A stretch of 64,000 nucleotides of DNA from positions 66,752 through 130,751 of the forward strand of contig JAQTYZ010000003.1 in NCBI GenBank assembly GCA_028688055.1. The letters run 5' to 3'. Below, one piece after another: positions 2,542-58,726 of this stretch (the stretch's first letter is position 1; each line of letters begins with the position of its first letter). The stretch comes from Patescibacteria group bacterium. GTDB taxonomy: Bacteria; Patescibacteriota; Patescibacteriia; Buchananbacterales; UBA6539. The position numbers and the translations under genes were made by a program. The notes below the pieces were generated by a model. It was not told where the DNA came from, did no database searches, and saw only the letters and a list, made by a program, of their open reading frames with translations.

Positions 2542-4272
2542 ATGTTTAAAGATCAACAACAGCTTCTCAATGCCTTAGTTGAAGCCAAACTTTTAAGTGC
2601 TGATCAGGCCAAGGAACTTGAGGCCAAAGCGACCGAAGTCAATCAGACTCCGGAAGATTTAATATTAGATGGTCATTTGGTTGCGGAAGATCGTTTAACG
2701 GAAATCAAAGGGAAATTACTTGATATCCCGGCGGTTGATTTAAAGGGTCGAGAAATTCTTAAAAAGGTTTTGAATCTAATACCGGGCGAAGTATCAGAAA
2801 ATTATCAAATGGTGCCGTTTGAATTAATTGGCAATGAGCTTCACGTCGGTTTGGTCAACCCGCAGAATTTTAAAGCGATTGAAGCCGTGGAATTCTTAGC
2901 TCAGAAATCCGGTTTTAAAGTTAGATATTTCATTATTTCTCAAGCTAGTTTGCATGAAGCTTTTAAAAACTACCGCATTTTAGGCGATGAAGCGAAAGAA
3001 GCGCTGGCTAATTTAAGTGAAGAAACCGCCGTCACGGGCGCAGCTAAAGAGTCGCTGAAAGAAATGGAAGAAGTAATTAAAAGCGCTCCAGTTTCGAAAA
3101 TGGTTTTGGTAATTATTAGACACGCTATTGACGGTCATGCATCGGACATTCATATTGAACCGACGATGAAAGATACTAAAGTACGCTACCGTATTGATGG
3201 AATTTTAAGAACGTCGTTGGTTTTGCCAAAGTACATCCATTCCGCGATTATTGCCCGAATAAAAGTTTTGGCAAATTTAAAACTTGATGAAACCAGAAAG
3301 CCTCAAGACGGCCGGATTAGATTGACAATTGATAACCGGGAAATTGATTTTCGTGTTTCAACCCTGCCTTTGTTTGAAGGTGAAAAAGTTGTTTTGCGAA
3401 TTTTAGATACCGAATCGCAAGTGCCGGGTCTGGAGCAATTAGGTTTTAATTCTGTTTACATTGAAAAAATTAAAGAATCAATCAAACGGCCGCATGGGTT
3501 AATATTGCTAACCGGGCCAACTGGTTCGGGAAAAACCACCACCTTGTATACGGTTTTGACTATGTTGAATCAAGATGGAATTAATATTGTAACACTTGAG
3601 GATCCGATTGAATATTATATTAGTGGTGTTAACCAATCGCAGATTAATCCGGAAGTTGGGTATACTTTTGCTTCGGGTTTGAGAGCAATTTTACGGCAAG
3701 ACCCCAATGTGGTTATGCTTGGTGAAATTCGAGATAATGAAACGACTGAGCTAGTCATTCACGCCAGCTTGACTGGTCATATGATTTTATCCACTCTTCA
3801 TACCAACGACGCTATCGGTGCGATTCCCCGACTGGTGGATTTAGGAGCGGAACCATTTTTGCTGTCATCGGTTTTAAATCTAGTCATTGCCCAGCGTTTG
3901 GCTCGAAAAATTTGTACCTATTGTAAGAAGGAAAGTTCAGTTCCGGAGACTTTGTTAACTAAAGCCAAAACCTTGCTGGCTGAAATCCCGCCGAAATTTT
4001 TGAGTAAAATTGATCCAGCGAAGTTATCTTTTTACAAGGGCGAGGGTTGTGCTCATTGTGGTAATTTGGGGTATCAAGGCCGAACAGCGGTCGCGGAAGT
4101 GATTAATATTACGACTGAAATTAGAGAAATAATGAATAATGGCGCCAAGGTTGAAGAAATTAGAAAGGCTTTAAAAAAACAGGATTTTATTACGCTGGCG
4201 CAGGACTGTCTTGTTAGGGCGCTTGAGGGCGAAACGACGCTTGATGAAGTTGTCCGGATTTCGACTTTGTAA
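2542..4272 (+). CDS. pilB: Type IV pilus assembly ATPase PilB (GspE family)
   Basis: Walker A GPTGSGKTTT, Walker B VVMLGEIRD, His box ILSTLHTND, tetracysteine CTYC...CAHC, N-terminal GspII domain. Confidence 0.9.
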   Translation: MFKDQQQLLNALVEAKLLSADQAKELEAKATEVNQTPEDLILDGHLVAEDRLTEIKGKLLDIPAVDLKGREILKKVLNLIPGEVSENYQMVPFELIGNELHVGLVNPQNFKAIEAVEFLAQKSGFKVRYFIISQASLHEAFKNYRILGDEAKEALANLSEETAVTGAAKESLKEMEEVIKSAPVSKMVLVIIRHAIDGHASDIHIEPTMKDTKVRYRIDGILRTSLVLPKYIHSAIIARIKVLANLKLDETRKPQDGRIRLTIDNREIDFRVSTLPLFEGEKVVLRILDTESQVPGLEQLGFNSVYIEKIKESIKRPHGLILLTGPTGSGKTTTLYTVLTMLNQDGINIVTLEDPIEYYISGVNQSQINPEVGYTFASGLRAILRQDPNVVMLGEIRDNETTELVIHASLTGHMILSTLHTNDAIGAIPRLVDLGAEPFLLSSVLNLVIAQRLARKICTYCKKESSVPETLLTKAKTLLAEIPPKFLSKIDPAKLSFYKGEGCAHCGNLGYQGRTAVAEVINITTEIREIMNNGAKVEEIRKALKKQDFITLAQDCLVRALEGETTLDEVVRISTL

Positions 4273-13327: not shown

Positions 13328-13357
13328 ATCCCGCCCAATAATTTGGGCGGGATTTTT
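13328..13357 (+). terminator. Rho-independent terminator
   Basis: ATCCCGCCCAATAATTTGGGCGGGATTTTT. Confidence 0.6.
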
Positions 13358-28436: not shown

Positions 28437-30230
28437 ATGGCCGGTCAAATTGACGATATTAAAGCCCGAGTCGACATTGTCGATTTGGTTTCGGAATATA
28501 TCAGATTAAAACAAACGGGTACCAATTGGCGCGCGCTGTGTCCTTTTCATAATGAAAAATCGCCGTCGTTTATGGTCTCGCGCGATAAGCAGATTTGGCA
28601 CTGCTTCGGCTGCAATGAGGGGGGCGATATTTTTACCTTTGTGCAGAAGATGGACAATATCGAATTTCCTGAAGCGTTGCGGTTACTAGCCCAAAAGGCC
28701 GGGGTGAAATTAATCGATCAGGATCCGAAAATGTCGAGCCAAAGAAATCGATTAATGGATAGCTTAGTTTTGACAACTAAATTTTGGCACCAAAATTTAG
28801 TTGAAGCAGCGGCCGGACAAAAAGCGCGCGACTATTTGGCGAAGCGGGGCGTGAGCGAAAAAATGATTGAAGAATTTAAATTAGGTTACGCGCCGGACAG
28901 CTGGGATAATTTAATCAAATTTTTAAAAAGTCAAAAATATTCCGACCAGGAAATTTTTCTCGCGGGTTTGTCAGTTAAAAAAGATCGCGGTATTGATTTT
29001 TATGATCGCTTTCGCGATCGGCTAATGTTTCCCATTAATGATTTCCACGGCAATCCGATTGGCTTTTCCGGTCGAACTTTGAAAGCCGACGAAGTCGGCG
29101 GTAAATATATTAACACGCCGCAAACTTTAGTTTACAATAAAAGTTTAGCGATTTTTAATTTAGACAAGGCCAAACAAGAAATTAAAAAGAAGAATTATGC
29201 TATTTTGGTTGAGGGGCAAATGGATGTGTTGGCGGTTTTTGCCGCCGGTTACGAAAATGTGATTGCGTCTTCAGGAACCGCTCTAAGTTTGGATCAACTT
29301 AAAATTTTAAAACGCTACACCAATAATTTGGCAATCTCGTTTGATACTGATGCCGCCGGTCAATCGGCGGCGAAACGTGGGATTGATTTGGCGCTGGGCG
29401 AAGAAGTTAATGTTAAAGTAATTGTCGTGCCCGGTGGCAAAGACCCGGATGAATGTATTCGCCATAATATTAATGATTGGCACAGTGCGGTCAAAAACGC
29501 TAAATCAATTATGGAATATTATTTTGATGAAACTTTTAAAAAATATGATTTAAAACAAGTTGAAGGGAAGAAAGCGGCCGCTAAAATTTTACTAACCGCC
29601 ATTTCTAAGCTGGGCAATAAAATTGAGCAGACACATTGGCTGCAGCAGCTTTCGGAAGCCATTAATGTGCCAGTTGATATCTTGCGCGAGTCGCTCAATC
29701 AAGGCGAAGCAAAACCGGCCGCGCCGTCAAATGTCGGCGTGAAGCTAAAGGTAGCCCAGCCGCGTAGTCTTAACGAAATGATGGCGGAGCAGATTTTGGC
29801 CATTGGTTTAAAGTATCCCGATAATCTGCCTTATATTATTGATAATCTGCCAGTTGATCTAATCACTGATGAAAGCTTAAAACAGCTTTACAAACAATTA
29901 ATAGTTTATTATACTAAAAACATTAGCGGAGAAATTAATTCTTTTAATTATCCCGAATTCAGCATACAACTTAAGGCGGATAATTTCAGTCAATTAGCCG
30001 ATAAGCTGGTTCTTCTAGCCGAGAAGGATTTTTTTGATTTTGAACCGCAGGTCGTAGGAGTTGAGCTAATAAAAATAGTTACATCACTTAAGCGCGCTTA
30101 TTATCAAAGTCAGCTTAAGGATATTGAACAACGGATTAAGCAAGAAGAAAAAAATAAGCAGTCAGGCGAGATTGAAAATTTAAACGACGAATTTAATAAA
30201 ATTATTAGTCAATTACAGAATTTAGAATAA
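28437..30230 (+). CDS. dnaG: DNA primase DnaG
   Basis: Zinc ribbon [11 protein letters not shown]...[24 protein letters not shown]; followed by rpoD. Confidence 0.9.
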
Positions 30231-30235
30231 TTATA

Positions 30236-31456
30236 ATGCCCAAGACTAAAAAAGTAGTTTCAAAAAAACCGGTCAAGAAAAAAGTTAGCAAGAAAAAACC
30301 GGTTAAAAAAGCCGCCAAACAGAAAGTCGCCAAGGCGACCAAGGCCACTAGGATGTCGAAGACGAAAGTGATCGCTAATTTTGAATTGATTAAACGGCTT
30401 TTAAATAAGGGTCGGACCCGTGGGTTTATTACGGAAACTGAAATTTTACATACTTTTCCGGAAGTTGAAGATTATTTGGAGGAGTATGAAAAGTTTTTGG
30501 GCAGGTTGGATCAGCTTGGATTGAATATCGTGGAAAGTGATGCTGGTTACTTAGGAACAACCGAGCGGCGGATGGAGGCATTGGATAAATCAGGCTTAGG
30601 CAAAAAAAATAAAAAAATTGATATTTCTGATATTTCCGCTGATTCAATTCAGATGTATCTGCGTGAAATCGGCAAAGTGCCATTGTTAAAATCAGAAGAA
30701 GAAATTTCTTTGGCCAAGAAATCGGAACACGGTGACAAGGAAGCCAAGAAGCGGTTAATCGAAGCCAACTTGCGGCTAGTCGTTTCGATTGCCAAGCGAT
30801 TCACTGGCAAAAGTTTGTCGTTACTTGATTTGATCCAGGAAGGTAATATCGGTTTGTTCCGCGCCGTCGAGAAATTTGATTATCGTCGTGGGTATAAATT
30901 TTCCACCTATGCAACTTGGTGGATTCGTCAAGCCATTACCCGAGCGTTAGCCGATCAGTCGCGAACGATTCGGATTCCGGTGCACATGGTTGAAACAATT
31001 AATAAATTTAAGCAAGCCGAGCGTCAACTGATTCAGGACTTGGGTCGTGAACCGTTGCCGGAAGAAATTGCCGCCGAAATGGGCGAACCGCTTGACAAAG
31101 TTCTTCATATCATTAAAATAAGTCAAGATACTATTTCGATTGAAACCTCGGTCGGCGAAGACGACGAGGACAGTACGCTGGAAGATTTTATTGAGGATGT
31201 TAGAACCGTCACCCCTGATCGGGCGGCGGCTTTGCAGTTATTGCGTGATTATGTCAATGAAATTATTAAGGATTTGACGCCCCGGGAGCAAAAGATTTTG
31301 GAAATGCGGTTTGGTCTTAAAGATGGCGTCGCCCATACGCTGGAGGAAGTCGGACAGGAATTTGATGTTACCAGAGAGCGCATCAGACAAATTGAAGCCA
31401 AAGCTTTAGAAAAAATTGAAAAACATAGTTTGATTGAGAAGTTAAGGGACTATTAG
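30236..31456 (+). CDS. rpoD: RNA polymerase sigma-70 factor RpoD with Lys-rich N-terminal tail
   Basis: Regions 1.2-4 including [13 protein letters not shown] (region 2.4) and region 4 HTH. Confidence 0.95.
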
Positions 31457-31486
31457 AAAATTAGTTTAAGATTAGGAGAGTTAAGC

Positions 31487-31540
31487 TCCGAGGTAGCTCA
31501 ACGGTAGAGTCCCGCCACGGCGGGATTAATCCATTGGTCC
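31487..31540 (+). pseudogene. Degenerate 5' fragment of tRNA-Asn (acceptor and D-arm intact, anticodon stem replaced by a GC mini-hairpin)
   Basis: TCCGAGGTAGCTCAACGGTAGAG is identical to the intact tRNA-Asn at 31807; it is followed by TCCCGCCACGGCGGGA and TTAATCCATTGGTCC. Confidence 0.5.
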
Positions 31541-31548
31541 TTGATTAT

Positions 31549-31794
31549 ATGAACTATTTCGTTTATATTATTAAGAATCAACAAGGCGCAATTTATATCG
31601 GTCAGACAAAGAATATTTTTGTCAGACTGAAGGTTCACAATTCGAACGAGGTTTTTTCAACGAAAAATCAAGGTCCCTGGAAACTTATTTATTTTGAAGA
31701 GTTCACATCTCGATCAGACGCCATGGCACGAGAAAAGCAGTTAAAAAGTTTTAAGGGTGGTAATGCTCTAAAAAAATTAATTGATAAAGTTTAA
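31549..31794 (+). CDS. Small GIY-YIG nuclease family protein (YhbQ/UPF0213-like); ATG 31549 preferred over the TTG at 31534
   Basis: YFVYIIKN...AIYIGQT (GIY/YIG), conserved Arg and EKQLK helix; 81 aa. Confidence 0.75.
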   Translation: MNYFVYIIKNQQGAIYIGQTKNIFVRLKVHNSNEVFSTKNQGPWKLIYFEEFTSRSDAMAREKQLKSFKGGNALKKLIDKV

Positions 31795-31806
31795 GGAGAG
31801 TTAAGC

Positions 31807-31878
31807 TCCGAGGTAGCTCAACGGTAGAGCAGTGGACTGTTAATCCATTGGTTCCGGGTTCGAATCCCGGCCTCGGAG
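31807..31878 (+). tRNA. tRNA-Asn (anticodon GTT), intronless
   Basis: U1:A72 and G73 as in bacterial tRNA-Asn; D-loop AACGGTA, anticodon loop CUGUUAA, T-loop TTCGAAT; 72 nt. Confidence 0.8.
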
Positions 31879-32103
31879 GAGGCTGGACGCGTTCCCGGAG
31901 ACCGGTTTGAGGCAGTCAACTTAGCCAAAAATAGTAGTCGTCAGTTTGTGTCCAATCCTAGGTGAGAAATCAGTTTAGAACCAGATAGCAAATTAGAGTC
32001 CAGTGATTAGGTAATACATAAGTGTTCTCGGCGACTGGCTCCGCCGATCAAAGGCTTGAAAATTTAAAACTGAATATTTATACTTCAAAAAAGAGTCATG
32101 TGC

Positions 32104-32396
32104 TCCGAGGTAGCTCAATGGTAGAGCAGCGGACTGTAGAATGATGCAGCCCCTAGGAGAAATCCTAAGGTGAAAATTTCGGGATAACGGTGAAGGCTAC
32201 GTTCGTCAGTTGACGGATATGCGAACACCGTGGGAACTCTGATCCGCCAGATGGCAGATCGGGGAGCGCCGTAGAGACTAGATACCGAAACACCTACATC
32301 CAAAATTGGATACGGTGATGATATAGTCCATCCCCCAACGAAAGTTGAGGACAAGATGTAATCCGTTGGTTCCGGGTCCGAGTCCCGGCCTCGGAG
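32104..32396 (+). tRNA. tRNA-Asn (GTT) interrupted by a 221-nt group I intron (32138-32358) in the anticodon loop
   Basis: Exons rebuild the same scaffold as the 31807 gene with anticodon loop CUGU|UAA; intron follows a U, ends with G, and carries R-like AGAGACTAGA and S-like GATATAGTCC (P7 pairing) plus a GAAA-capped P9. Confidence 0.7.
32138..32358 (+). other. Group I self-splicing intron (no ORF)
   Basis: P1 CUGU/GCAG with U.G at the 5' splice site, conserved R/S elements, omega-G at 32358. Confidence 0.7.
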
Positions 32397-32460
32397 CAGA
32401 TGACTTTTTGAAAAGAATTTTGAATAAAATAAGGCCAATCAGGTAGGTATACCGACGGCT

Positions 32461-33750
32461 TTATTTTACTAGAGAGACCTTTTGGTTTTTAAGATAGAGT
32501 TCAGTTTTTAAACAAGCCAATATCTCCCGCTTCTCATCGCGAGTTCCTTCGGCTAGTAAGTATTTAACGTATTCCTTGATGTCCACTTCGGACATTTTTA
32601 TTTCATCTCGGTTATTACCCTTGGAAATTAGCGTATTAAATTTTTGGTAACGCTCCATTTCCTGCTGCATTTTTTTCAGCGTACCCAACTTATCCAGTTC
32701 AATCTGATCAATTATTTTGAGCAACTCCTCGATTAATGTTTCTTCTCTGACGTACGCTTCTTTGCAATTGTAATCTTTGAATCGGTTACAGTGGTAGTAG
32801 ACGTAGCGTTTTATTGAACCATCATGTTTGATCTTTTTGAATTTATCTTCGGCTGTGACCCCTGATCCGCATGAACCACACTTAATCATGTTGGCGAAGT
32901 CAAATTCTTTGGTACCAGGTTTTAATTTCGGTGCTACCTCGAGATGTATCTTGACTTCGTTAAATAGATCTTTACTGATTAATGCCTGATGCGAACCTTT
33001 GTAGAATATTCCTGAACCCACCGGATACTCAAACTCGCCGTAATAGAAATGATTTTTGAGCATATTGTAAATACTACTCAATGCTATTTTCTTTCCGCTC
33101 CTCGTCCTAAATCCGATTTCATTCATCCATCGCTTGAGTGCCCGACCACTGTATCCTTGGTAGGCAACCTTTTCAAACATTTGAGTGATTACCGGCGCTC
33201 GCTTTGGATCAAGATATACTTTCCGCTGACCCTTCGTTTCGCCAATTCCGTGGAGGTAACCAATCGGAGGATAGCCTGGTCGCCAGCCCTGTTCACATTT
33301 GGCGCGAAGCCCTCGTTTAACATTCACTCCCTTGGCATCGTTTTCTAGTTTGGCAGTACTACCTAGGATCATCAACAAGAATTTTTCGTTCGGTGAATTA
33401 CCAAAGGTTTGTCCGTAGGTTTTTATCTGCTTCAAGATTCCCTGATCCATAAAATCAATGAGCTTGCCAAGGTCACCGGCGTTTCTGCTCAACCTATCAG
33501 GTGCCCAAGTTAAAATGGCGTTGTATTTTTCAGTTCGCAATGCCTCAACCATTTTATTAAATACCGGTCGTTTACCCGAATCTTTAGCTGAATGAGACTC
33601 CTCAAATGTCTCAAGGATTTCAATATTTTCTCGTTTGGCCACTACCGCCATTTCTTTATTCTGTGTTGGGATAGAAAGCTGTTGGAGTTCGTCAGACTCC
33701 GTGCTTTTCCGGCTATAGAGGCAATACCTCAAATTTTGTTCTAAGTCCAT
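32461..33750 (-). CDS. Large serine recombinase (resolvase-domain integrase)
   Basis: YSRKSTESDELQ catalytic Ser motif, DRLSRN, recombinase domain, zinc ribbon CGSCGS...YYHC, coiled-coil tail; adjacent to tRNA genes. Confidence 0.85.
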   Translation of the reverse strand: MDLEQNLRYCLYSRKSTESDELQQLSIPTQNKEMAVVAKRENIEILETFEESHSAKDSGKRPVFNKMVEALRTEKYNAILTWAPDRLSRNAGDLGKLIDFMDQGILKQIKTYGQTFGNSPNEKFLLMILGSTAKLENDAKGVNVKRGLRAKCEQGWRPGYPPIGYLHGIGETKGQRKVYLDPKRAPVITQMFEKVAYQGYSGRALKRWMNEIGFRTRSGKKIALSSIYNMLKNHFYYGEFEYPVGSGIFYKGSHQALISKDLFNEVKIHLEVAPKLKPGTKEFDFANMIKCGSCGSGVTAEDKFKKIKHDGSIKRYVYYHCNRFKDYNCKEAYVREETLIEELLKIIDQIELDKLGTLKKMQQEMERYQKFNTLISKGNNRDEIKMSEVDIKEYVKYLLAEGTRDEKREILACLKTELYLKNQKVSLVK

Positions 33751-58656: not shown

Positions 58657-58696
58657 TTTACGACAGTTGAGTTTTTTATTTTAAAAATAGTTGATT

Positions 58697-58726
58697 CCCG
58701 CCACCGCGGGATTTTTTATTAGCTAA
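58697..58726 (+). terminator. Rho-independent terminator
   Basis: GATTCCCGCCACCGCGGGATTTTTT. Confidence 0.6.

Follow-up and report, generated by a model that had tools for sequence, protein, structure and literature searches.

A minimal GIY-YIG nuclease gene between a palindrome-bearing pseudo-tRNA and an intact tRNA-Asn in a Patescibacteria genome belongs to a recurrent tRNA-linked module

A 64-kb stretch of a Patescibacteria (candidate phyla radiation, CPR) metagenome-assembled genome (MAG), here called the window, carries behind rpoD a gene for an 81-aa GIY-YIG nuclease that is set between a truncated, palindrome-bearing copy of tRNA-Asn and an intact tRNA-Asn. All coordinates are window positions and refer to the + strand unless stated otherwise. 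As judged from comparison with other genomes, the locus belongs to a large and recurrent family of nuclease cassettes linked to tRNA genes. The module has three parts: an open reading frame (ORF) of ~250 nt, an intact tRNA gene on the same strand that adjoins or overlaps it, and, on the opposite side, a truncated copy of the same tRNA in which the palindrome takes the place of a few bases. The reading we lean towards is that of a selfish nuclease cassette which is directed at tRNA genes, restores the interrupted tRNA and was inserted once in the ancestor of a small clade.

The duplicated tRNA-Asn and its nuclease gene

An exact 36-nt direct repeat had been described in the initial annotation, and the repeat (AGGAGAGTTAAGCTCCGAGGTAGCTCAACGGTAGAG) indeed occurs with 100% identity at 31474-31509 and 31794-31829. 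A third copy at 32091-32126 is 81% identical. When a 5-nt indel is allowed, the direct repeat widens to 31463-31509 versus 31788-31829. The locus is composed as follows.

28437-30230, + strand: dnaG, with rpoD next
30236-31456, + strand: rpoD, stop codon at 31454-31456
31463-31473, + strand: AGTTTAAG plus ATT, upstream extension of direct repeat copy 1 and native rpoD-tRNA spacer; aligns with 31788-31793 with a 5-nt indel
31474-31509, + strand: direct repeat copy 1, 12 nt of 5' flank plus pseudo-tRNA-Asn positions 1-24 (repeat search, 100% identity)
31510-31525, no strand: 16-nt GC palindrome TCCCGCCACGGCGGGA, local variant of a conserved TCC..GGA hairpin
31526-31540, + strand: pseudo-tRNA-Asn resumed, positions 35-47/49 (repeat search, 13/13 identical to 31840-31852)
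31549-31794, + strand: 81-aa stand-alone GIY-YIG nuclease gene (UPF0213/Slx1-like; Pfam PF01541)
31788-31829, + strand: direct repeat copy 2, spacer-like 5' flank overlapping the ORF end plus tRNA positions 1-24 (repeat search, alignment)
31806-31879, + strand: intact intron-less tRNA-Asn(GTT), ends varying by 1 nt (ARAGORN; Rfam tRNA, 75 bits)

Both tRNA predictions confirm that the second repeat copy leads into an intact tRNA-Asn. The first copy had been taken for a 5' fragment with a GC mini-hairpin in place of the anticodon stem. Positions 1-24, that is the 5' strand of the acceptor stem and the D-arm, are present at 31486-31509 (100% identity to the tRNA in blastn-short), and TCCCGCCACGGCGGGA stands in place of the 10 nt CAGTGGACTG (standard tRNA positions 25-34). 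This description was nevertheless incomplete in two respects: the hairpin is a conserved element of the family and not a random sequence, and the tRNA resumes behind it, where TTAATCCATTGGT (31526-31538) exactly matches positions 35-47. The resumed part comprises the 3' half of the anticodon loop, the 3' strand of the anticodon stem and the variable loop. It then degenerates into the 8-nt leader of the ORF, whose start codon lies 10 nt past the position-47 match, where the T-arm would be expected. The insert of ~320 bp lies between direct repeats of a tRNA portion (the 36-nt exact segment plus a 13-nt second segment), one tRNA copy is complete, and the GIY-YIG gene is the only ORF between the repeats. 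Neither a second GIY-YIG copy nor a further tRNA-Asn fragment was found in the 64-kb window.

Homologues and an NCBI protein of 81 aa with the same sequence ('MAG: GIY-YIG nuclease family protein', Patescibacteria) back the ATG at 31549; no obvious Shine-Dalgarno sequence precedes this codon. The TAA stop (31792-31794) lies together with the last two codons in the duplicated spacer, within the 8-mer AGTTTAAG that occurs at 31463 and 31788. This 8-mer alone is not enriched (6 found versus 3.1 expected). Its presence before both repeats had been read as a hint of an ancestral tandem array of GIY-YIG and tRNA units. The motif does stand there and does carry the stop codon, and arrays exist elsewhere (L007, L018, L223), but AGTTTAAG does not require one here and its upstream copy need not be the relic of another GIY-YIG gene. 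It is better explained as duplicated native rpoD-tRNA spacer that now provides the ORF's stop codon, because the repeat of the related locus L096 sets in at the rpoD stop codon, and its ORF ends with a TGA inside the tRNA acceptor stem.

The annotated GIY-YIG assignment holds: the protein matches PF01541 with 65.9 bits (cutoff 22.6; E 4e-18), and across 33 homologues Y6, Y16, G18, R26 and E62 are invariant and H30 and N31 nearly so. The domain is complete but minimal, since the protein ends at residue 81 directly after the catalytic domain; no second Pfam domain and no DNA-binding extension was found in it. Profile comparison with solved structures gave BH0048 (1ZG2, E 2e-12, profile positions 1-81) and EF2693 (1YWL, E 4e-10), followed by eukaryotic SLX1 and I-TevI. 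With a single domain and full-length similarity to BH0048 and EF2693 the protein falls among the UPF0213 or stand-alone Slx1-like proteins and is predicted to be a catalytically intact minimal GIY-YIG nuclease of this type. The two solved UPF0213 proteins share its single domain of ~80-100 aa and its catalytic Tyr, Tyr, Arg and Glu. They have no assigned function. The clade that includes the window protein has members of 78-95 aa, which are linked to tRNA genes and hairpins. The NCBIfam model grpIintron_endo covered only the first ~40 residues (19-26 bits, cutoff 56), and no PADLOC or NCBIfam family scored above threshold. The family counts 6,331 cluster representatives at E<=1e-10 and 26,473 at E<=0.001. 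In a rough neighbour-joining (NJ) tree the tRNA- and hairpin-linked proteins form one clade, apart from unlinked UPF0213 proteins of 90-110 aa from Acidobacteriota, Clostridia and others. A 2006 survey of the superfamily described the Slx1-like proteins of prokaryotes as minimal and mentioned one fusion to a TrmH-like tRNA methyltransferase; a linkage of UPF0213 proteins to tRNA genes or palindromes is not described there (PMC1564403).

The two nearest relatives, both assembled independently of the window (L001, GCA_035289505.1; L096, a Joint Genome Institute (JGI) metagenome contig), have the same layout. In L001, dnaG, rpoD, a pseudo-tRNA-Asn with TCCCGCGGCCGCGGGA, the GIY-YIG gene and tRNA-Asn follow one another as in the window, and its protein P0002 is the closest homologue (66% identity). 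L096 has rpoD, a pseudo-tRNA with the hairpin TCCCGCTATGGTGGGA, the GIY-YIG gene and tRNA-Asn. An assembly duplication, suspected as a trivial source of the repeats, is ruled out by this agreement, and an exact 36-mer is not a chance match. RpoD of the two relatives is 95-96% identical to that of the window (last 240-250 aa) and 94-96% among all three genomes (last 250 aa), yet the GIY-YIG proteins share only 59-66%; with the architecture common to all three, this indicates that the cassette is old within the small clade. The initial annotation had held that an ancient fixed architecture would speak against insertion. The layout is indeed shared with the two nearest relatives, but only within this clade, and the event is simply not recent.

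An alignment of the three loci revealed that each pseudo-tRNA shows the lineage-specific D-loop and anticodon-stem bases of its own tRNA.

Window, pseudo-tRNA and tRNA: D-loop AAC-GGTAGAG; anticodon-stem 3' strand TCCAT
L001, pseudo-tRNA and tRNA: D-loop AAT-GGCAGAG; anticodon-stem 3' strand TCAGC
L096, pseudo-tRNA and tRNA: D-loop AATCGGTAGAG; anticodon-stem 3' strand CCAAT

The hairpin keeps its TCCCGC...GGGA ends in all three while its centre varies. To judge from the alignment, pseudo-tRNA and tRNA have evolved in concert in these lineages. As a separate observation, the pseudo-tRNA of L096 holds a second, unrelated perfect palindrome of 20 nt (CCTGCCTGCCGGCAGGCAGG, L096 783-802), which sits between tRNA positions 10/11 without a deletion, and a second long hairpin is likewise present in the pseudo-tRNA-Pro of L223. 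GC palindromes seem to gather in redundant tRNA copies.

In a survey of the rpoD junction in the 80 best metagenomic relatives of rpoD, only L096 was filled. L088 (RpoD 84% identical, last 240 aa) is empty, with tRNA-Asn 25 nt past the rpoD stop codon, and empty rpoD-tRNA-Asn junctions were also found in L095, L114, L122, L123, L126, L147 and L160. In L104 a pseudo-tRNA (ACTCCG, then TCCGCCAGCTGGCGGA, then TCGGTGGTAGA) stands directly before an intact tRNA without any ORF, and L089 and L094 hold further hairpin-bearing relics of this kind. The cassette is thus polymorphic at a conserved site, albeit at coarse resolution, as RpoD identity between filled and empty genomes is <=84%. The empty and relic junctions indicate that the rpoD-tRNA-Asn junction is ancestral, that the cassette was gained in one sub-lineage and that decayed remnants persist in others. 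This bears out the earlier proposal of an insertion at tRNA-Asn with partial duplication of the tRNA, the empty junctions of L088 and seven others speaking in its favour.

Recurrence of the module and its palindrome

Using a profile of 33 homologues, we selected 80 loci from one-genome-per-species contigs by protein similarity alone. ARAGORN called a tRNA within 100 nt of the ORF in half of them (40/80), on the same strand in all 40. The commonest partner is tRNA-Asn (22), followed by tRNA-Met (7), and Asp, Lys, Ala, His, Val, Arg and Leu tRNAs occur as well; additional look-ups yielded tRNA-Pro and another tRNA-like 3' end. In three more loci, where ARAGORN made no call, a group I intron interrupts a tRNA-Asn. 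TCC..GGA palindromes were found no farther than 120 nt from the ORF in 39/80 loci; the background amounts to 6 in 162 kb of these loci and 14 in 382 kb of the rpoD loci, or ~1 per 27 kb. Wherever a partial tRNA copy was detected the palindrome directly adjoins it, with junctions of the types 1-13/hairpin/17-28, 1-24/hairpin/35-48 and hairpin/47-73 (tRNA positions). The following architectures were found.

Largest Patescibacteria class: tRNA 1-13, hairpin, tRNA 17-28, ORF, intact tRNA
Window, L001 and L011 class: tRNA 1-24, hairpin, tRNA 35-48, ORF, intact tRNA
L007 and L008 class: intact tRNA, ORF, tRNA 10-23, hairpin, tRNA 34-76
Bacteroidota class: intact tRNA-Met, ORF, hairpin, tRNA 47-73

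Small GIY-YIG genes that adjoin tRNA genes with partial tRNA duplications, for which a search had been advised, are common in other genomes. About a third of the sampled homologues have neither tRNA nor hairpin. Thirteen loci have an ORF that extends 10-11 nt into tRNA-Asn and uses the TAG of tRNA positions 8-10 as its stop codon, which explains the recurrent '...IPx' C-termini. Tandem arrays comprise five identical 382-nt units in L007, three units in L018 and GIY-YIG/tRNA-Pro repeats in L223, and are also present in L017 and L023; in L008 and L057 hairpin-bearing pseudo-tRNAs are repeated in tandem upstream of the gene. Positions 1-13 of the pseudo-tRNA equal the locus's own tRNA at 11 of 16 scored hairpin sites, with 12 distinct 5' ends, and four of the five non-matching sites are artefacts of register or architecture.

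These counts bear on the simplest history of the window locus, in which tRNA-Asn was duplicated in tandem by slippage or unequal crossing-over, one copy decayed, the GIY-YIG gene was there or arrived by chance and the hairpin is the terminator of rpoD. Unequal recombination can yield direct repeats around a gene, the hairpin is located 54 nt past the rpoD stop codon, and terminators of the same genome at 13328 and 58696 have very similar TCCCGCC stems. Nevertheless, the module with its three parts is found in different phyla and with different tRNA types, its 16-mer being nearly invariant, and in other classes tRNA sequence directly follows the hairpin. Moreover, no T-run and no terminator call accompany the hairpin, and lasting agreement with the respective tRNA in three diverged lineages is not what a decaying pseudogene would show. 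A purely local history is largely refuted by the recurrence statistics and we consider it very improbable.

The commonest form of the palindrome, the consensus TCCGCCAGCTGGCGGA, was counted 21 times, in phyla that include Patescibacteria and Bacteroidota; across the family the palindrome is 15-17 nt long. The window has two sites of the TCCCGCCACGGCGGGA type, where 0.01 are expected, and homologous hairpins are found at the same tRNA position in L001 (TCCCGCGGCCGCGGGA), L096 (TCCCGCTATGGTGGGA), L011 and L007. Pairing was assessed on TCC-N10-GGA 16-mers, a pattern that does not presuppose it: all three inner pairs are complementary in 38/51 such 16-mers near the gene versus 4/48 far away. Compensatory variants such as TCCGGC..GCCGGA and TCCGTC..GACGGA occur, the central four bases vary freely, and the L096 hairpin includes a G-T pair. 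This pattern of substitution shows that the hairpin is under pairing constraint. Its place relative to the gene differs between classes, 23-31 nt upstream of the start codon in one and just past the stop codon in another, and solo hairpins without a gene are found in L104, L008 and L057. RNA folding of the leader was uninformative, with the hairpin as its only robust element (z = -2.4).

Two other origins of the hairpin were considered and rejected. An intrinsic terminator is not supported, as the window hairpin is followed by TTAATCCATT without a T-run and no terminator is called in 31300-32500. A phage origin is contradicted by viral contigs, in which 56 exact TCCGCCAGCTGGCGGA sites were found but none near a tRNA or GIY-YIG gene, so that the 16-mer alone implies no tRNA; tblastn against phage and plasmid collections gave only weak matches (~34% identity). 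In the loci with a 10-nt overlap (L010, L013, L016 and others) the first five base pairs of the consensus hairpin (TCCGC...GCGGA) equal the acceptor stem of the accompanying tRNA-Asn. This hints that the palindrome may stem from a collapsed acceptor stem in that class, an explanation that fails for the window, L001 and the tRNA-Met class. A different arrangement surrounds the distant homologue P0044 of L225, whose ORF lies exactly between perfect 18-nt inverted repeats (CCCAGCACTAACTTTCAC at 1474-1491 and GTGAAAGTTAGTGCTGGG at 1748-1765 of L225); it has no tRNA, and its neighbours are AbiEii, HepT/MNT and TrbL genes.

Proposed mechanism and competing explanations

What we infer from the anatomy, the recurrence, the filled and empty sites, the arrays elsewhere, the compensatory hairpin changes and the pseudo-tRNAs that track their own tRNAs is a selfish cassette with the following mechanism. 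It would have entered the rpoD-tRNA-Asn junction a single time, in the common ancestor of the window organism and its two nearest sampled relatives, with duplication of the DNA that reaches from the rpoD stop to about position 50 of the tRNA. The left copy would have become the hairpin-bearing pseudo-tRNA and the right copy the working tRNA, its 5' flank providing the ORF stop. Spread or persistence may rely on nuclease-stimulated homologous recombination, homing-like or Campbell-type, in which tRNA sequence serves as portable homology. A unit with a hairpin-interrupted tRNA fragment would recombine with the resident tRNA through whichever homologous arm beside the hairpin is longer, leaving one intact tRNA and one truncated hairpin-bearing copy. 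Every geometry in the sampled loci appears compatible with such recombination on the longer side. Because the tRNA is regenerated, insertion would be harmless and repeatable, and repeated events or unequal crossing-over could lead to arrays.

The palindrome may be the cis site of the nuclease, either as a hairpin, a cruciform or a dimer-binding site. Breaks made there by an Slx1-like structure-specific nuclease could trigger gene conversion that keeps the pseudo-tRNA equal to the tRNA, which would account for their concerted evolution. A promoter scan located a promoter-like site at 31434-31461, upstream of the pseudo-tRNA, suggesting that the cassette rides on the tRNA transcript. It would then be transcribed from the tRNA's own promoter and the tRNA freed by normal end-processing. 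We further see a fair, though less than even, chance that these loci constitute an unrecognised class of minimal mobile elements. In such a class an ~80-aa structure-specific GIY-YIG nuclease and a 16-nt palindrome would target tRNA genes, regenerate the tRNA, mark or disable the displaced copy with the palindrome and be able to form arrays. It would have colonised Asn, Met, Lys, Asp, Pro and other tRNA genes across Patescibacteria, Bacteroidota, Ignavibacteriota and further phyla, and would give part of UPF0213 its first function.

Several observations weigh against a mobile, selfish cassette. Neither a near-identical filled/empty pair nor a circle junction was found, and the mobility event was not seen directly. 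Two candidates for recent mobility were dismissed: P0023 occurs in several contexts, in which a conserved tRNA-Ala/GIY-YIG/tRNA-Asn block is bordered by variable DNA and does not occupy different tRNA sites, and the upstream context of P0034 is always identical. Subclades of the NJ tree largely track host phylum and architecture, which would fit long vertical inheritance and hence possibly a host function. The 81-aa protein lacks the sequence-specific binding domain of known homing endonucleases, and an intact, presumably cleavable tRNA stays beside the gene, unlike in classical homing, where insertion destroys the target. Hairpin insertion also seems separable from the position of the ORF, as hairpins in the pseudo-tRNAs of L223 and L096 lie off the ORF junction, and the phage and plasmid collections searched contain essentially no member of the family. 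Finally, the window hairpin resembles terminator stems of the same genome at 13328-13353 and 58696-58711 (TCCCGCC...GGCGGGA); these two stems have T-runs and are ordinary, true terminators unrelated to the cassette.

Vertical inheritance is the core of a different explanation, a module that benefits its host. A housekeeping UPF0213 nuclease would be co-transcribed with the tRNA, and the hairpin or pseudo-tRNA would act on the RNA, as an end-protecting stem-loop, a processing signal or an mRNA insulator, the duplication being an old local accident kept by selection. Stem-loops near the start codon or after the stop codon stabilise mRNAs, and the hairpin lies in such typical spots; the G-T pair of L096 is tolerable in RNA. 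The architecture has been kept in three genomes despite 59-66% protein identity, the subclades track phylum, and the ORF is intact with invariant catalytic residues even in Patescibacteria genomes of about 1 Mb. A host function is harder to reconcile with presence and absence among relatives, with relics that have no ORF, with at least ten different tRNA partners and with tandem arrays of identical units. Likewise, the hairpins lie inside the tRNA at varying tRNA positions and at no fixed distance to the ORF, about a third of the sampled homologues lack both tRNA and hairpin, and stop codons overlap the tRNA, so that processing of its 5' end would decapitate the mRNA. We regard a host module as unlikely, if worth keeping in mind.

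In a second alternative the nuclease would be a toxin that acts on tRNA as RNA, while the pseudo-tRNA transcript binds or titrates it as a decoy, by analogy with type III toxin-antitoxin systems. To our knowledge, all characterised GIY-YIG enzymes are DNases, and no PADLOC or NCBIfam model points to a role in defence or as a toxin. The tandem hairpin-bearing pseudo-tRNA repeats upstream of the gene in L008 and L057 recall an antitoxin array, the pseudo-tRNA follows the real tRNA, and one member of the clade is fused to a TrmH-like tRNA methyltransferase (PMC1564403). In many loci, however, the pseudo-tRNA is downstream of the gene or only ~13 nt long. The window locus itself has one pseudo-tRNA unit, no terminator, a protein of a DNase family and no PADLOC match above noise, in contrast to type III systems, and we give a toxin with an RNA decoy little credence.

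The window also contains a second tRNA-Asn gene with an intron, and the following features lie downstream of the cassette.

31880-32102, + strand: 223-nt spacer between the tRNA-Asn genes, no ORF
32103-32397, + strand: second tRNA-Asn(GTT) gene, split between positions 35 and 36 (context, outside the cassette)
32138-32358, + strand: 221-nt predicted group I intron (Rfam RF00028)
32461-33750, - strand: large serine recombinase (Resolvase, Recombinase and Zn_ribbon_recom), ~60 nt past the intron-bearing tRNA-Asn and outside the repeats
42771-42888, + strand: LOOT RNA, a small RNA (sRNA) family of unknown function (Rfam RF03000, 80 bits versus a gathering score of 46.4)

The intron scores 45.7 bits against RF00028 (E 3e-10), just below the gathering score of 50, and is inserted exactly at 35/36; same-position introns in L028 and L034 reach 72-86 bits. 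The exons are 92-94% identical to the intron-less tRNA-Asn copy. Over 308 nt the gene is homologous to the rpoD-linked intron-bearing tRNA-Asn of L113 (RpoD 84%), which follows rpoD after ~215 nt; the exons of the window gene and the 3' end region of its intron find matches in L115 as well. The initial annotation had counted this third copy towards a nuclease-driven hotspot. It appears instead to be of a separate and published kind: group I introns at 35/36 of Patescibacteria tRNA-Asn have been reported in a paper in which GIY-YIG genes, pseudo-tRNAs and palindromes go unmentioned (0 occurrences; PMC13011429). In the 223-nt spacer no reading frame has a GIY-YIG remnant, and none of the ~240 loci fetched resembles it. 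The best promoter-like site of the region (32056-32084, TTGAAA-17-TATACT, 10/12 matches) lies just upstream of the intron-bearing tRNA. A 21-nt inverted repeat, AAAGAGTCATGT at 32090-32110 and AGATGACTTTTT at 32389-32409 (90% complementary), lengthens the acceptor stem of this tRNA by ~10 bp into leader and trailer and could be a precursor-processing stem. The serine recombinase may mark the edge of an integrated element; for a distant att site, no further tRNA-Asn fragment is present in the 64-kb window.

The intron gives rise to a third alternative, collaborative homing, in which the nuclease would cut intron-less tRNA-Asn near 35/36 and thereby promote its joint inheritance with an ORF-less group I intron. 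This recalls free-standing endonucleases beside intron-containing phage genes. The intron-bearing gene is 223 nt downstream in the window, in L018, L028 and L034 the ORF runs directly into an intron-bearing tRNA-Asn, and the hairpin of the window class ends one base from the intron site. Furthermore, tRNA-Asn is by far the commonest partner (22/40), and tRNA-Asn introns of Patescibacteria mostly lack an endonuclease gene of their own (PMC13011429). Against these points, most linked tRNA-Asn genes are intron-less and hence would be self-targets, many partners are other tRNAs without an intron, and in the largest class the hairpin sits in the D-loop, far from 35/36. Collaborative homing is accordingly rated improbable.

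The selfish cassette that we favour resembles homing endonucleases and integrative islands in its logic while failing one defining feature of each. Free-standing GIY-YIG endonucleases of phages such as T4 SegB lie among tRNA genes, are variably present and are presumed to spread by break-induced recombination with co-conversion of flanks; Seg-type enzymes have more than 200 aa and a DNA-binding domain, are phage-borne and come with neither tRNA duplication nor palindrome. A GIY-YIG gene beside tRNA genes that varies among relatives is what the cassette has in common with them. Its protein of 81 aa is chromosomal, however, the tRNA is duplicated, a palindrome is present, and the linker and C-terminal DNA-binding domain that define Seg and I-TevI homing endonucleases are missing. 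Repetitive extragenic palindromes (REPs) lie dispersed over the intergenic DNA of whole genomes, and their enzyme (RAYT) is of the HUH/Y1 type. REP/REPIN-RAYT systems share with the cassette the tie between short GC-rich palindromes and one small nuclease-type gene, and solo hairpins occur here too, but the palindromes of the cassette are found almost only in redundant tRNA copies by the GIY-YIG gene. Integrase-driven islands and prophages in tRNA genes show the same partial-tRNA direct repeat and the same harmless insertion through a regenerated tRNA. They span kilobases, encode a tyrosine or serine recombinase and mostly restore the 3' part of the tRNA, whereas the cassette is ~320 bp, has only a nuclease, and its partial copy is 5' or 3' and interrupted by the palindrome. 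No site-specific recombinase is present within the insert, the serine recombinase lying 580 nt beyond the intact tRNA. The attL/attR sites of islands likewise comprise one complete and one partial tRNA copy, and partial tRNA genes have been ascribed to integrases and CRISPR (PMC9897764).

Consequences for annotation and for the UPF0213 family

Selfish nuclease genes and tRNA-targeting elements are known kinds, but the tRNA-linked GIY-YIG and palindrome module is undescribed in the literature searched. Searches for the palindrome, for YhbQ/COG2827/UPF0213, for adjacency of GIY-YIG and tRNA genes and for partial tRNAs returned no account of it, subscription-only papers being outside their scope.

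The module breeds systematic annotation errors, namely pseudo-tRNAs, ORFs that overlap tRNAs and ORFs that read through the hairpin. Database proteins such as P0015, P0082 and P0087 carry a translated hairpin or pseudo-tRNA at the N- or C-terminus (PPAGG, RQLA, RRLA), and P0064 and P0065 are fusions of tandem copies. Both kinds are gene-calling artefacts caused by the module. It evidently breaks short-read assemblies as well, given that runs of N fall exactly on repeated pseudo-tRNA/hairpin units (L004 ~3375-3473, L018 ~1219-1300, L057 ~1270-1368) and that many contigs with GIY-YIG cassette genes end just past the tRNA.

If mobile, the cassette would be among the smallest autonomous elements known and would represent a nuclease-based route to tRNA-gene targeting, besides integrases and retrotransposons. 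It would also account for part of the tRNA-gene duplication, pseudo-tRNA formation and concerted evolution in reduced genomes. The stand-alone UPF0213/Slx1-like proteins form a very large family with solved structures that still lacks a function, and the clade linked to tRNA genes and palindromes gives a testable hypothesis for their substrate.

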